Source of the DNA: Candidatus Saccharimonadales bacterium
GTDB lineage: Bacteria > Patescibacteriota > Saccharimonadia > Saccharimonadales > JBGSXW01
Length of the DNA: 64,000 nucleotides
Assembly: GCA_041751215.1 (NCBI GenBank)
Contig: JBGSXW010000002.1
Span: forward strand, 67,123-131,122
Direction of reading: 5' to 3'
Made by a program: the position numbers and the translations under genes. Position 1 is the stretch's first letter. Each line of letters opens with the position of its first letter. Below are positions 19,384 through 47,881 of the stretch, piece by piece. Under the pieces are notes generated by a model that saw only the letters and a program-made list of their open reading frames with translations, had not been told where the DNA came from and did no database searches.

Positions 19384-19508
19384 ATTAACGCACCTTGTTT
19401 GTTTACCATAACACTCAGATACAACGTATCAGGTTTTTTATCAGTAGTCAAAGGAGTTATCCCCAGGTGGTTGTTTGCCTTAACTTCAGCAATCCAAAGG
19501 GACAATAA

Positions 19509-19547
19509 TAAAAACCCCCACAATCTGTACGATTGCAGGGGTTTTTC
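19509..19547 (-). terminator. rho-independent (bidirectional-looking) terminator after rplL
   Basis: AAAAACCCCCACAATC / GATTGCAGGGGTTTTT stem with a 5-nt loop. Confidence 0.7.
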
Positions 19548-20693: not shown

Positions 20694-20744
20694 ATGACTA
20701 GTCCTCCTTATTTTAAGTAGTATTGATCTGTTAAGGTGGCCAAT

Positions 20745-20773
20745 TAAAAAATCTTTGGCTTATTTACCAAAGA
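20745..20773 (-). terminator. rho-independent terminator upstream of rplJ
   Basis: TCTTTGG / CCAAAGA stem with an 8-nt loop; U6 tract on the minus strand. Confidence 0.55.
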
Positions 20774-20891
20774 CTTTAATAAAAACAAGTTGTTTTTACC
20801 TCGGTAGCGCTCTTAGTGAACCGGAGTCCAAGCTACTGTCTTTGGCGGATAACTTGTTAACGATAACAGATCGGTCATCAGATTGCAATGC

Positions 20892-39868: not shown

Positions 39869-40522
39869 CTAGTAGATAACTCGGCGTGGACGCGTGATGG
39901 TCTTTGGTTTTGTCTTTGACTTCTCGGCTCGCTTAAGTTTTTGCTTAACCAGCTTGGCTTCATCGTTTTGACCAGTAAATTCGTAGGCCTGAGCAAGTAG
40001 TCTTAGAGTCTGCGCGCTGGGCTCGAGCTCTACGGCTTGAGTTAAAGATGCAATCATCTGAGGTCCGTTGCCAAGTTTTTCTTGAACTTTAGCGTATGCA
40101 ATGTGTCTAGCGGCTAGGTTGTCCTCGAGTTTCAGTGCGGCTTCAAATGCGGCTGCGGCTTTCTCGTAGTTTTCAGTCTCGTAGTAGATAAGCCCCAAGT
40201 TGTGCAGACTTGGCGCACTAGGCTGAATACTAGAGGCAATCTCAAAACACTCGATTGCGTCCTTGTATTCCTTTTGACGAGAATAAAGGATCCCCAGTCT
40301 GTTATAGGCTGGGGCGTTGCGCTTATCTAGACGCAAGATTGTCAGTAAAGCTTTTTCCGCCCGCAAATAATGCCGATCGCGCATTCCCGCTTGAGCAATT
40401 TCAGCCAATTTCTGTAGTCGTAAACTAAGTTTTTGCGACAATGGCGTCATACTTCGCTCGGCCTGATGAAGGCTGAGGAGTGCAATAATTCCAAATAGTC
40501 CGATGGCACCGCTTGCTAACAT
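39869..40522 (-). CDS. membrane-anchored TPR-repeat protein
   Basis: N-terminal TM helix followed by repeated A..Y...G.....A...F..AL TPR-like units. Confidence 0.6.
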   Translation of the reverse strand: MLASGAIGLFGIIALLSLHQAERSMTPLSQKLSLRLQKLAEIAQAGMRDRHYLRAEKALLTILRLDKRNAPAYNRLGILYSRQKEYKDAIECFEIASSIQPSAPSLHNLGLIYYETENYEKAAAAFEAALKLEDNLAARHIAYAKVQEKLGNGPQMIASLTQAVELEPSAQTLRLLAQAYEFTGQNDEAKLVKQKLKRAEKSKTKPKTITRPRRVIY

Positions 40523-41421: not shown

Positions 41422-42279
41422 CTAAAGATATTCTTGCATGTCGCTAGGCACGTCTGCAACAAACTCTTGATCTTTTCCCGATGGCATTTTTAACGACAAT
41501 CTATGGGCATGCAGCAAAATTCGACCGTTTAGGTCAACTTCGGAGCCGTATAGAACGTCGCCAATAATCGGCGCTCCTAGGTTTGCTAAGTGAACTCGAA
41601 TTTGATGAGTGCGACCGGTTTCTGGCTGGCATTCTGCTAGGCTTGCGTCTTCGTTTCGTTTTAGCACCTTAACGTTTGTTACGGCGGGCTTGCCGTTAGC
41701 ACCAACTCTGAAGGTCTGGGGTTTTTTGGGGTTTCTCTCGATTGGCCATTCTAATCTATAGGCGCTGTTATCGAGTTCTGCGTTAACAACGGCGAGGTAT
41801 GTTTTGGTCGCTTTGCGATCAGCAAATTGCTTTTGCAAGTGAGTCATGGCAGATTGATTTTTAGCACAAACAATTAAACCCGAGGTCACTCTGTCTAGTC
41901 TATGAACTATCCCCGCTCGATTTGAGTCACTTCCTTTCCACCACTTTGCTATTAAGTCTGCAACGGTCTGCTCGTTGTTAAGAGCACCTTTGCTGTGTGT
42001 CAACATGCCAGACGGCTTGTTAAAAACAATTAAATCGTCATCTTCGTAGACAGTTGGAACATCGAATTCTTGATACTCTCGCTCTGGAAGCTTTACCGAA
42101 ACTACATCGGCATTGCTTAGCTGGGTTTTGTTGTCTGCTGGCTGGTCGTTTATAAGCACGTATCCGTCCGCAATCAGCTTCTGCCAGCGACTGCGACTAA
42201 TTGCGGGGTCATTTTTAGCCAGCCATTGATCTAGTCGCTGACCGCTATTGTCTTCTGAGATGGTATAGAGCTTTTCCAT
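41422..42279 (-). CDS. rluD: RluA/RluD-family pseudouridine synthase
   Basis: S4-like N-terminus and the HRLDRVTSGL catalytic motif. ATG 42279 preferred over TTG 42309. Confidence 0.8.
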   Translation of the reverse strand: MEKLYTISEDNSGQRLDQWLAKNDPAISRSRWQKLIADGYVLINDQPADNKTQLSNADVVSVKLPEREYQEFDVPTVYEDDDLIVFNKPSGMLTHSKGALNNEQTVADLIAKWWKGSDSNRAGIVHRLDRVTSGLIVCAKNQSAMTHLQKQFADRKATKTYLAVVNAELDNSAYRLEWPIERNPKKPQTFRVGANGKPAVTNVKVLKRNEDASLAECQPETGRTHQIRVHLANLGAPIIGDVLYGSEVDLNGRILLHAHRLSLKMPSGKDQEFVADVPSDMQEYL

Positions 42280-42289
42280 TACTTCTGCG

Positions 42290-43324
42290 CTAAAGTGGTC
42301 GAAGGCCAACAGCTTTTTGGACCTTGTTTAAGATTGCAGTGGCGGTTTTGTTCATTTGCGCCTCTGAACTGCCGAGTTTATCGTTAATTTTTGACTCATC
42401 AACGCCCTGCAGGTTTTCCTGAAACTTGGTGAGGAATTCTTTAACGGTGGTTGCCACGCGTTCTTTGAGCGGACCGTACTGTGTTTGTCCATCGAACTCT
42501 TGAACAATCTCATCGGTTGATTTTGATTCGAGCAATGCCAAAATTTGCATCAGGTTACTGATGCCGGGCTGGTTAGTTTCATCGTAAGCGATTTTGCTTA
42601 AACTGTCAGTAGTAGCGGACATGACTTTTTGAGCCGCCACAGCAGGATCGTCGGCTAAAAATATCACCCCTTTTCCAGATTCGTCAGACTTGCTCATCTT
42701 CTTGGTCGGTTCGACTAGATCTTTAATTCTGAGTCCTTGATCCTTGCCAAAGAAGGAATGCTGTTCTGCTACTGACTTAGGAACTACAAACAGATCTCCG
42801 AACTGATTGTTGAGTCGTTGCGCAATGTCGCGGGTGTATTCAATGTGCTGAGATTGATCGTCTCCTACTGGTACGTACTCGGCTCCGTAAAGCAAAATAT
42901 CGGCGGCCATTAGCACAGGGTAGTTGAACAGACCAACACTAATTCGGTCGTCGCCTAATTTTGCAACCTTATCCTTGTACTGAGTCATTCGGCTCATCTC
43001 GCCAACACCGGTAAAACAATCTAGGATCCATGTTAGCTCGCTATGAGCCGAGACATAGCTTTGTCGGTAGATGTGGACATCTGCGTGTTCAAGCGGCAAG
43101 CCAGCTGCGACAAATACCCTTAAATTGTGCATGATTTGCGACTGAAGCTGTTTGTGATCGATCGGCGTAGTAAAACTATGTAGATCAGGCACAAATAAGT
43201 TGACTTGATAATCTTCAGCCTTAGAGTTGGCCATATCCACTAATGGCAAAAGTGCGCCAAAGTAATTACCTAATTGCAGGTCGTTATTAGCTCTCAGGCC
43301 AGTAAGAATTACGGGTTTTGACAT
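42290..43324 (-). CDS. trpS: tryptophanyl-tRNA synthetase
   Basis: ILTGLRANNDLQLGNYFGA N-terminus and KKMSKSD. Confidence 0.85.
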   Translation of the reverse strand: MSKPVILTGLRANNDLQLGNYFGALLPLVDMANSKAEDYQVNLFVPDLHSFTTPIDHKQLQSQIMHNLRVFVAAGLPLEHADVHIYRQSYVSAHSELTWILDCFTGVGEMSRMTQYKDKVAKLGDDRISVGLFNYPVLMAADILLYGAEYVPVGDDQSQHIEYTRDIAQRLNNQFGDLFVVPKSVAEQHSFFGKDQGLRIKDLVEPTKKMSKSDESGKGVIFLADDPAVAAQKVMSATTDSLSKIAYDETNQPGISNLMQILALLESKSTDEIVQEFDGQTQYGPLKERVATTVKEFLTKFQENLQGVDESKINDKLGSSEAQMNKTATAILNKVQKAVGLRPL

Positions 43325-43343
43325 AAGTTAACTCCATTATAGC

Positions 43344-43562
43344 CTATTCTTCTTCAACCCGCCTGTATACCGCCTGACCCCAAGCGACCGATTGCACGAT
43401 AAATCCTCTCTCTGCCATTACGGCGATATCTTGCTCGTCAAAGGTGCCTGTTGCTTCCTCCGAAACCAGTTCAAGTTTTGACTCGGCTTGTAGCTGCGGC
43501 AATACATCTAGCCCCATTATATCGGGACACTTGCTGGTAGTTATTGGTTCTCGTTCTGACAT
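43344..43562 (-). CDS. hypothetical acidic protein (72 aa), first ORF of the trpS operon
   Basis: AAGGAG SD before the ATG at 43562. Confidence 0.5.
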   Translation of the reverse strand: MSEREPITTSKCPDIMGLDVLPQLQAESKLELVSEEATGTFDEQDIAVMAERGFIVQSVAWGQAVYRRVEEE

Positions 43563-43592
43563 GTTCTCTCCTTATGTATCTAAAATCGTATT

Positions 43593-43618
43593 AAAAAACC
43601 CGCTCTGGGCGGGTTTTT
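43593..43618 (-). terminator. rho-independent terminator (segments 3:4 of the candidate attenuator)
   Basis: Minus strand AAAAACCCGC-CCAGA-GCGGGUUUUUU. Confidence 0.75.
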
Positions 43619-43656
43619 AAGTTCATGCTGCTTATTTTAAATCAACAAAAATCCCG

Positions 43657-43713
43657 CTAAGGTCGTGTGCGGGCAAACCATGCGTAGTATTTGTTGGTTT
43701 CTCTTGAAATCAT
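43657..43713 (-). CDS. candidate 18-codon leader peptide
   Basis: AUG 43713, MISRETNKYYAWFARTRP, UAG 43659-43657. The stop overlaps hairpin segment 2. No SD, so possibly leaderless. Confidence 0.3.
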   Translation of the reverse strand: MISRETNKYYAWFARTRP

Positions 43714-43721
43714 ATTAGAAG

Positions 43722-43750
43722 ATAATAAGCCCAAGACTTGATCATGTCAA
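43722..43750 (-). promoter_or_regulatory. sigma70-like promoter immediately downstream of rpsI
   Basis: Minus strand: TTGACA (43750-43745), 17 nt, TATTAT (43727-43722). Confidence 0.5.
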
Positions 43751-43757
43751 CGCAATA

Positions 43758-44162
43758 TTAACGCTTGGTGTATTGTTCGGCTTTGCGGGCGCGCTTAAGG
43801 CCGTACTTCTTGCGTTCTTTTTCTCTAGGATCACGCTTGAGCAGCCCAGCTTTTTTAAGGGTTCCACGTGCGTCCTCGTTAAGACCTGACAGGGCCTTGC
43901 TGATCGCAAGCGTGCAGGCATCAACCTGTCCTCTTAGGCCACCGCCTTCAACTTTAAGGCTGATGTCGTATGCCTTAGTCTTTTCAAGCAATTGTAACGG
44001 TCGCTGCAATTCGTGTAGTAGTTTGCCGCTATCAGCTAGGTATTCGGCAGCTGGCTTTTCGTTTATGGTGATATTGCCTTTGCCGCTGCTGTAAAGTCGG
44101 GCGCGAGCAGTTGCAGCTTTTCTGCGACCTAGACCGTAGTGATACTGAGCTTTGGTGGCCAT
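43758..44162 (-). CDS. rpsI: 30S ribosomal protein S9
   Basis: C-terminus ...RKKYGLKRARKAEQYTKR; follows rplM. Confidence 0.95.
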   Translation of the reverse strand: MATKAQYHYGLGRRKAATARARLYSSGKGNITINEKPAAEYLADSGKLLHELQRPLQLLEKTKAYDISLKVEGGGLRGQVDACTLAISKALSGLNEDARGTLKKAGLLKRDPREKERKKYGLKRARKAEQYTKR

Positions 44163-47852: not shown

Positions 47853-47881
47853 ATTATACCTGAACGACCACTGTATGTAAA
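47853..47881 (-). promoter_or_regulatory. consensus-like sigma70 promoter for infA-rpmJ-rpsM...
   Basis: Minus strand: TTTACA (47881-47876), 17 nt, TATAAT (47858-47853). Confidence 0.55.

Follow-up and report, generated by a model that had tools for sequence, protein, structure and literature searches.

The locus examined here raises the question of whether the spacer between the ribosomal-protein gene rpsI and the tryptophan--tRNA ligase gene trpS does no more than end one transcript, or whether it also governs the genes that follow. The spacer lies on the minus strand of a 64,000-nucleotide stretch of contig JBGSXW010000002.1 (positions 67,123 to 131,122), hereafter the window. The source of the window is a Saccharibacteria (TM7) genome, and its TrpS shares 56-75% identity with the TrpS proteins encoded by Candidatus Saccharibacteria genomes and metagenome contigs. 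An initial annotation of the spacer had proposed an attenuator with an aromatic leader peptide ahead of trpS. The analysis reported here makes it highly probable that the element is a ribosome-mediated leader-peptide transcription attenuator, which would sense how much charged tRNA-Trp, and possibly also charged Tyr and Phe tRNA, is available. As judged by sequence comparison, it is a real and conserved cis-regulatory element that shows every feature of the leader-peptide attenuator class that sequences can test, and readthrough under Trp starvation is predicted.

The coordinates of the element were checked base by base on the minus strand. Those first given for the promoter, the open reading frame (ORF), the four pairing segments, the U6 tract and the gap of about 30 nucleotides (nt) behind it proved exact. 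The parts of the element are the following.

43760-43758, minus strand: stop codon TAA of rpsI, read in the sequence
43745-43750, minus strand: -35 hexamer TTGACA of the leader promoter, from the sequence and a promoter scan
43722-43727, minus strand: -10 hexamer TATTAT, separated from TTGACA by a 17-nt spacer and ending 8 nt before the leader ATG
43657-43713, minus strand: leader ORF MISRETNKYYAWFARTRP, 18 codons from the ATG at 43713 and stop codon TAG (43659-43657)
43675-43689, minus strand: aromatic cluster TAC TAC GCA TGG TTT (Tyr Tyr Ala Trp Phe)
43669-43673, minus strand: segment 1, CCCGC, able to pair with segment 2
43647-43657, minus strand: segment 2, GCGGGAUUUUU (GCGGG core 43657-43653), 5' strand of the antiterminator
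43609-43618, minus strand: segment 3, AAAAACCCGC (CCCGC core 43613-43609), shared strand, used as 3' strand by the antiterminator and as 5' arm by the terminator
43593-43603, minus strand: segment 4, GCGGG (43603-43599) and U6 (43598-43593), 3' arm and tail of the terminator

The leader ORF is contained in a 25-aa TTG ORF of a program-made ORF list. Its sole Trp codon is the TGG at 43680-43678, and the first G of segment 2 is the last base of its stop codon. The T-run is separated by 30 nt from the ATG (43562) of the next gene, orf72.

The arrangement of these parts suggests the following course of events. A strong promoter located right after rpsI would produce a transcript beginning at or next to the AUG of the 18-codon leader, on which a ribosome would start without a Shine-Dalgarno sequence. 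If held at Tyr-Tyr-Ala-Trp-Phe, this ribosome would cover segment 1 and leave segment 2 free. Free segment 2 would pair with the 5' arm of the terminator once this had been made, no terminator would form, and the polymerase would continue into orf72 and trpS. With ample Trp-tRNA, the ribosome would instead reach the stop codon and cover segment 2, so that the hairpin with its U6 would form and the transcript would end at about 43593.

The window was analyzed for the ability of this RNA to fold in both ways. The 127-nt RNA folded with -29.2 kcal/mol (z = -2.83, better than 200 of 200 shuffles), and its minimum-energy fold holds the 1:2 hairpin and the terminator. A comparison of the alternative pairings, which had been suggested as a check in the initial annotation, gave -13.5 kcal/mol for the terminator, A5CCCGC-loop-GCGGGU6, and -12.9 kcal/mol for the antiterminator; such near-equal energies are what a kinetic switch would show. 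The hairpin at 43613-43593 was absent from the output of an automated terminator scan and was found by a custom hairpin scan and by the folds; an extended A/U stem that uses up the T-run probably explains the miss. The leader promoter is one of only two 11/12 matches in 12 kb. The 64-kb window contains one copy of the element, and on the sequences compared the case for more than chance rests on conservation in relatives, not on the window alone.

Relatives were searched with an nhmmer profile made from 8 copies and then with a covariance model, all 160 loci being covered (individual loci are cited below by L numbers). The profile detected 3 further copies in genome loci and about 20 further ones across all 160 loci, and the covariance model contributed those of L128, L095 and L140 and the second copy of L083. 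In total, homologous elements are present in more than 30 related loci. Of the 77 Saccharibacteria trpS loci for which 400 nt or more of upstream sequence is available, 29 carry the element upstream of trpS. Every copy found has trpS downstream, the search having been made among trpS loci, and the rpsI-trpS neighbourhood is common among relatives. In L083 the element is found in tandem, at 1727-1863 and 2154-2294, with a small ORF after each copy. Alignment, covariation and masked-folding counts given below refer to 28 aligned elements. In relatives with the element, the leader ORF, its Trp and aromatic codons and the helices are all conserved, so that the comparison of orthologous rpsI-trpS spacers proposed in the initial annotation supports its reading.

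All 28 aligned elements contain a short ORF of 18-31 codons with an in-frame Trp at codon 10-12 (for this count the start of the L124 ORF was revised to 2120), and the context of this residue is mostly (Tyr/Phe)-Trp-(Phe/Tyr)-Thr. Counts of open codons in the three frames around the TGG were non-discriminating, all frames being often open, and a test of the ATG frame was used instead. An ATG situated 18-39 nt 5' of the TGG is in frame 0 in 26 of the 28 elements, in frame +1 in two and in frame +2 in none, and the two elements without a frame-0 ATG have an in-frame GTG start. In 25/28, the start of the leader ORF is preceded by a TAnnnT hexamer whose end lies 4-12 nt (mode 7) away, often with TTGACA 16-18 nt further 5'; TTGACA stands at the matching position in L001, L003, L006, L007, L083, L090, L128 and L161. 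This spacing indicates that the leader ORF should be leaderless, which answers the concern, expressed when the element was first described, that it lacks a Shine-Dalgarno sequence. In the window, the expected transcript start is the leader AUG itself or a position no more than about 3 nt from it. Downstream of the aromatic codons, a conserved nucleotide block, GGCGGTTTGTTCTGTGCG, is read in the frame ...RGGLFC... in some loci and ...LAVCSVR... in others, pointing to conservation of the block as RNA and of the TGG as a codon.

Some leaders depart from this pattern. The variant at L140:1341-1458 has a tandem WW, MDQIKLQTWWNQSYRGDSLV. In L023 (2612-2620), L108 (2051-2072) and L095 (about 745-766), the leader ORF starts about 5-20 nt past the rpsI stop and no promoter is recognisable, an arrangement that suggests translation of these ORFs off the ribosomal-protein transcript, possibly via coupling.

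The closest relative, L161, is a Logan contig with the same gene order as the window. Its identity to the window amounts to 91% in the leader ORF (52/57 nt), 68% in the orf72 coding sequence and 66% in the promoter region, and the two orf72 proteins are 64% identical. All four differences within the 18 leader codons are synonymous, so that the residues are kept. The fifth difference in the ORF turns the TAG of the window into TGG, and the L161 ORF, MISRETNKYYAWFARTRPWRDYC, continues through segment 2; this variant (L161:2290-2500) carries a second Trp codon at the position of the window's stop. As the other leader ORFs of the family run through segment 2, the early stop of the window leader is, on this comparison, a local peculiarity. 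The pairing strands are UGGCGGG/CCCGCCA/GGCGGGU6 in L161 versus GCGGGAUUUUU/AAAAACCCGC/GCGGGU6 in the window, and from their sequences the two loci appear to stabilise the same two helices by different bases.

The four synonymous changes could mean selection on the peptide, and they bear on an explanation to which we assign a small probability, namely that the terminated RNA of about 120 nt or the 18-residue peptide acts in trans and cis control is secondary. With a strong promoter, the terminated RNA would be abundant under plentiful Trp, and a precedent exists in rnTrpL/peTrpL of Sinorhizobium, for which functions of an attenuator-derived small RNA and of a leader peptide have been reported (PMC6614838, PMC7298713). 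However, the peptide is not conserved family-wide outside the aromatic core, its C-terminal part is read in two frames, the element is always linked to trpS, and no candidate target came up, none having been looked for. A role in trans would in any case be compatible with the attenuator, an addition to it rather than an alternative.

The composition of the peptide is also relevant to a second and less probable explanation, in which the leader would resemble TnaC and sense free Trp in the ribosome tunnel, stalling the ribosome at a fixed site, in place of sensing the charging of tRNA-Trp. TnaC has its Trp at position 12 of 24 residues, a fixed spacing from this Trp to the C-terminal Pro and stop, and Rho-dependent termination. 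The leaders described here resemble it superficially: at codon 10-12 they have one conserved Trp with a Phe after it, the peptide has about 24 residues in most relatives, and that of the window ends in Pro. By contrast to TnaC, Trp and stop are separated by a variable 21 to 66 nt, the residues past the aromatic core are not conserved and belong to two reading frames, and the terminator is an intrinsic hairpin with a U-tract, not a Rho site. Moreover, induction by excess Trp would have little point for trpS, or for the DAHP synthase-like gene that follows the element in some relatives.

The attenuator reading requires that helices 2:3 and 3:4 be alternatives, and both were assessed on a MAFFT alignment built without fitting to any structure. 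As controls, the helix partner was slid by 1-3 columns, and 500 shuffles were made per helix. The RNAalifold consensus on this alignment is the 2:3 helix. Its 14 pairs were formed in 83.5% of cells, versus 33-56% for the slid partners. For the 3:4 helix the figures were 89.9% versus 39-58%, with the row of the window counting against it, as MAFFT places the 3' arm of the window terminator one column off register. Changes on both sides were observed in 8/14 pairs (17 cells) of helix 2:3 and in 7/11 pairs (22 cells) of helix 3:4, and 0/500 shuffles matched the observed score in either case; since the aligned sequences share ancestry, these shuffle counts are not probabilities and overstate significance, and the slid controls are the fairer comparison. 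Relative to the consensus GUGGCGGU/ACCGCCAC, compensated changes in helix 2:3 comprise GUGACGGC/GCCGUCAC in L124, GGUGGC/GCCGCC in L120, GGCGAU/GUCGCC in L128 and GCGGG/CCCGC in the window. A hairpin followed by a T-rich tail, in most cases a clean T-run, is present in 28/28 elements, with -11 to -22 kcal/mol. Thus both the 2:3 antiterminator and the 3:4 terminator of the original proposal covary. The 1:2 helix is weaker, with 80% of cells paired versus 21-54% slid, both-side changes in 3 pairs, and 12-13/500 shuffles reaching the observed score. The idea that the strength of 1:2 tracks the absence of a separate rpsI terminator was dropped, the pattern being inconsistent.

Covariation of segment 2 with the 5' arm of the terminator also bears on the simplest explanation, that the hairpin is a mere terminator of the ribosomal-protein operon ending in rpsI and that chance accounts for the short ORF and the promoter-like hexamers 5' of it. 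This would fit L011, L014 and L031, in which a short rpsI-trpS spacer holds a plain terminator after rpsI and then TATAAT and trpS. It would also fit the window, which has no other hairpin terminator for rpsI and in which promoter-like sites are no more numerous over 12 kb than shuffles lead one to expect. It is nevertheless very improbable, because, in addition to the covariation, about 30 loci keep the promoter, the leader ORF together with its Trp codon, and segment 2, in L001 and L003 a separate rpsI terminator precedes the promoter of the element, and in several loci the element is located 1-2 kb away from rpsI yet upstream of trpS. The two roles are compatible, and the hairpin probably ends the rpsI transcript as well.

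The consequences of a translating ribosome were analyzed by masked folding, in which the RNA was cut at the base before segment 4, leaving the RNA present at the time of decision, and the ribosome was represented by a mask of the A site plus 13 nt. When the A site was placed on the Trp codon, segment 2 was paired with the six-base core of the terminator 5' arm in 28/28 elements; when the ribosome was placed on the stop codon, this pairing was present in 0/28. This agrees with the original proposal that a ribosome stalled at UGG lets 2:3 form and one at the stop codon prevents it. In the window, a ribosome modelled on the Trp codon leaves segment 2 paired with 43618-43609. The distance from the first base of the UGG to the start of segment 2 is 20-26 nt in 25/28 elements and 23 nt in the window; the value of 26 nt in L001, L003 and L083 reflects the position of their Trp codon, two codons further 5'. 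In the model, a ribosome 2-3 codons past the aromatic cluster would start covering segment 2. The spacing thus makes the aromatic codons the last stall positions that would leave segment 2 wholly free. When no ribosome was included, the antiterminator was predicted in 21/28 elements, which indicates that segment 1 is accessory and that the essential event would be the presence of a translating ribosome over segment 2. The model thus supports the logic first proposed for the choice between 2:3 and 3:4, with segment 1 in a lesser part than it was given there.

The same 21 antiterminators mean that something must prevent them, and a trans factor setting the switch, with the leader ORF irrelevant, would be an uncharged tRNA in the manner of a T-box or an RNA-binding protein in the manner of TRAP, which binds 9-11 spaced GAG/UAG repeats. 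Although a T-box is usual for trpS in Firmicutes (PMC1262725), this explanation is hardly tenable: no T-box hit was obtained at the gathering score in the window, at E up to 10 over 43300-43800, or in 20 relatives, no other Rfam family reached its threshold in the window or in those relatives, the element, of only about 120 nt, lacks a specifier-loop architecture and contains only three scattered GAG/UAG triplets, and the conservation of the ATG-TGG frame would be left unexplained.

Several observations weigh against the attenuator reading. The element is wholly absent from 48/77 related loci. The copy at L083:1727-1863 keeps the segment 2 and terminator helices, but its leader ORF, MRMQRMNKQTCVSHISVAACSVHL, has neither Trp nor any other aromatic codon. 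The leader has a single Trp codon, where known Trp leaders carry two or three, and sensitivity may consequently be low. The prediction of most antiterminators without a ribosome departs from the classical four-segment scheme, and the fixed footprint of A site plus 13 nt and equilibrium folding simplify what would be a kinetic process. In the window the GC cores of the stems are short, with 5 bp, and the shared ancestry behind the shuffle counts, mentioned above, belongs here as well. Lastly, trpS has a conserved -10 element of its own, and its expression would not depend on readthrough only. This element and the other features surrounding the attenuator are listed below.

47853-47881, minus strand: near-consensus promoter TTTACA-17-TATAAT in the secY-infA gap, 15 nt 5' of the infA ATG (47837)
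43344-43562, minus strand: orf72, first gene after the terminator, with Shine-Dalgarno sequence AAGGAG at 43573-43568
43336-43341, minus strand: TATAAT, second -10 element, for trpS, 11 nt before the trpS ATG (43324) and overlapping the end of orf72
42290-43324, minus strand: trpS (tryptophan--tRNA ligase), TIGR00233 273 bits versus a cut-off of 176.75
L004:1931-2980, L081:1459-2442, L086:1534-2475, L087:1110-2039, L091:1034-1999 and L092:118-1083: DAHP synthase-like genes of relatives

The initial annotation had seen no room for another promoter between the terminator and the next ATG (43562) and had concluded that the 72-aa ORF, trpS, rluD and holB depend on readthrough. For trpS, and with it rluD and holB, this conclusion is contradicted by the TATAAT at 43341-43336. 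The arrangement is general: TAYAMT is found at most 25 nt from the trpS start in 79/85 related trpS loci, element-free loci included, in the form (G)GTATAAT 6-12 nt before the start. By its position, the trpS mRNA made from this -10 element is probably leaderless or near-leaderless, and a GGAG at 43335-43332 would sit only on the longer readthrough transcripts. Since the hairpin scan showed no terminator between orf72 and trpS in the window, readthrough transcripts should reach trpS. The presence of a -10 element belonging to trpS itself implies that the attenuator is no on/off gate but adds starvation-induced transcription to a basal level. Most likely, then, what it adds is Trp-starvation-inducible transcription of orf72 and trpS, the effect on trpS and the size of this effect being predictions.

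The first gene to profit from readthrough in the window, orf72, is on sequence evidence a real gene and a member of a small-protein family without assigned function. An exhaustive phmmer search yielded eight small proteins of 60-72 aa as relatives (P0002, P0004-P0008, P0010), and the family shares the C-terminal motif GTFD..DI..MA..G..V....WGQ.VYR. Two other phmmer hits, P0003 and P0009, were rejected because they look like spurious repeat proteins. No Pfam match was obtained for orf72, tblastn against the first 80 loci gave no match, a word-indexed protein search returned only orf72 itself, and an exact-sequence contig look-up had nothing on record.

The gene located right after the terminator varies among relatives. 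Mostly it is a small ORF of 53-148 codons led by a Shine-Dalgarno sequence, and the small ORFs at the position of orf72 in other loci are unrelated or weakly related to it. In 3 relatives trpS follows the element directly, about 105 nt downstream. In 6 relatives the element is directly followed by a gene for a divergent AroF/G/H-like DAHP synthase, which has a PF00793 match and scores below the cut-offs of the NCBIfam DAHP synthase models; that of L087 is split by a frameshift. Such a gene is unexpected in bacteria thought to be without aromatic amino-acid synthesis. The Tyr-Trp-Phe codons and the link to the DAHP synthase suggest, speculatively, that the supply of Tyr and Phe is read as well. 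Extending this, we regard it as an unlikely idea that the leader reports all three aromatic aminoacyl-tRNAs and that the gap between attenuator and trpS is a cargo slot, which would repeatedly have captured genes (orf72-like, divergent DAHP synthase) to be switched on when supply by the host stops. If it were true, the genes in the slot would be candidate starvation or host-interaction factors of an amino-acid-dependent episymbiont.

On the minus strand, the gene order is secY, promoter, infA, rpmJ, rpsM, rpsK, rpsD, rpoA, rplQ, rplM, rpsI, element, orf72, trpS, rluD and holB. The promoter at 47853-47881 is likely to start the infA...rpsI transcript, which would run into the element. Neither reading of the sequence nor the hairpin scan revealed a terminator between rpsI and the element in the window, and the same hairpin should for this reason also end the infA...rpsI transcript. 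Downstream, trpS and rluD as listed overlap by 20 nt (42290-42309, minus strand), and the listed TTG start of holB at 41462 would overlap rluD by 41 nt (41422-41462, minus strand), an internal ATG being possibly the true start. The trpS-rluD-holB overlaps are consistent with co-transcription and translational coupling.

The window was also scanned for a -10 hexamer followed after 5-10 nt by a start codon. This returned 19 sites, of which 5 open ORFs of at least 60 codons, with no excess over ATGs generally. Examples of leaderless architecture are found at 40522 and 49326, and there is no sign that it is common in the window. Two further RNA features were noted elsewhere in the window. A match to the ribosomal protein L10 leader (RF00557) is located at 20737-20863 on the minus strand (47.1 bits versus a gathering score of 44) and ends in a hairpin and T-run at about 20751; in Bacillus, leaders of this kind serve as transcription attenuators (PMC4538822). 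At about 19475-19545, a strong symmetric hairpin, AAAAACCCC(U/C)(G/A)CAAUC...GAUUG(U/C)(G/A)GGGGUUU, has A- and T-runs on either side and is present on both strands; with computed energies of -21 and -15 kcal/mol it looks like a bidirectional terminator.

Saccharibacteria are not known to make their own amino acids and would have to obtain them from their host. To our knowledge, few regulators have been described in them and in other small-genome bacteria of the candidate phyla radiation (CPR). If the element is indeed a conserved attenuator, it would imply that transcription and translation are coupled in these bacteria, that leaderless translation serves regulation and that the charging of tRNA-Trp is monitored. 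It would provide a testable readout of nutrient supply in an episymbiont, and it marks small proteins without known function, and a DAHP-synthase-like gene, as candidates for induction by starvation. Adding the family to RNA family databases would put right the annotation of the rpsI-trpS spacer, in which no leader ORF is called. At gathering thresholds, Rfam contained nothing over the element in the window or in 20 relatives. The best hit in the window was Trp_leader (RF00513), with 27.8 bits and E = 0.0014, below the gathering score of 41 and derived mostly from the terminator, and a scan of the window at permissive E values gave only sub-threshold, terminator-driven leader and small-RNA hits. 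Full-text literature searches retrieved no cis-regulatory RNA of such a kind described in Saccharibacteria or CPR.

The mechanism itself is a textbook one, represented by E. coli trpL, E. coli pheST and Streptomyces trpS, whereas no prior description was found of this family or of its Saccharibacteria setting. The element has in common with E. coli trpL a short Trp-containing leader ORF, the use of one strand by both antiterminator and terminator, and an intrinsic terminator ahead of the structural genes. Unlike trpL, which has two Trp codons and a leader ORF led by a Shine-Dalgarno sequence, it has one Trp codon and would be leaderless; segment 1 is dispensable in most relatives, and the target is an aminoacyl-tRNA synthetase gene and not biosynthetic genes. 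It differs further from the classical scheme in having the antiterminator as default fold in most relatives, in the second promoter for its main target and in the phylum of its host.

Closer in target is the attenuator ahead of a tryptophanyl-tRNA synthetase gene of Streptomyces, of which Vecchione and Sello reportedly made an experimental study in 2010 (J Bacteriol 192:3565). That leader-peptide attenuator, located before trpS (trpS2/trpRS1), was predicted by Seliverstov et al. in 2005 (PMC1262725), and it is likewise a classical one. In addition to the difference in phylum, the Streptomyces enzyme is an auxiliary, antibiotic-resistant TrpRS, whereas here no other trpS is seen at the locus, and a second promoter element precedes the gene.

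In E. coli, the leader of pheST is led by a Shine-Dalgarno sequence. This operon, named as an analogue by the same authors (PMC1262725), resembles the proposed attenuator in that ribosome-mediated attenuation, through a leader rich in cognate aromatic codons, acts on an aminoacyl-tRNA synthetase operon; pheST has several Phe codons, while the element has a single Trp within a Tyr-Trp-Phe cluster. For the predicted leaderless start, the nearest parallel is found in mycobacterial polycysteine leaders, in which a leaderless, amino-acid-responsive short ORF reportedly opens the transcript and controls the downstream operon (bioRxiv 10.1101/834739). These leaders contain runs of Cys codons, and Seliverstov et al. 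reported no obvious terminators at Mycobacterium cys leaders (PMC1262725). By contrast, the element upstream of Saccharibacteria trpS combines its putative leaderless ORF with a canonical hairpin and U-tract and with a covarying antiterminator.

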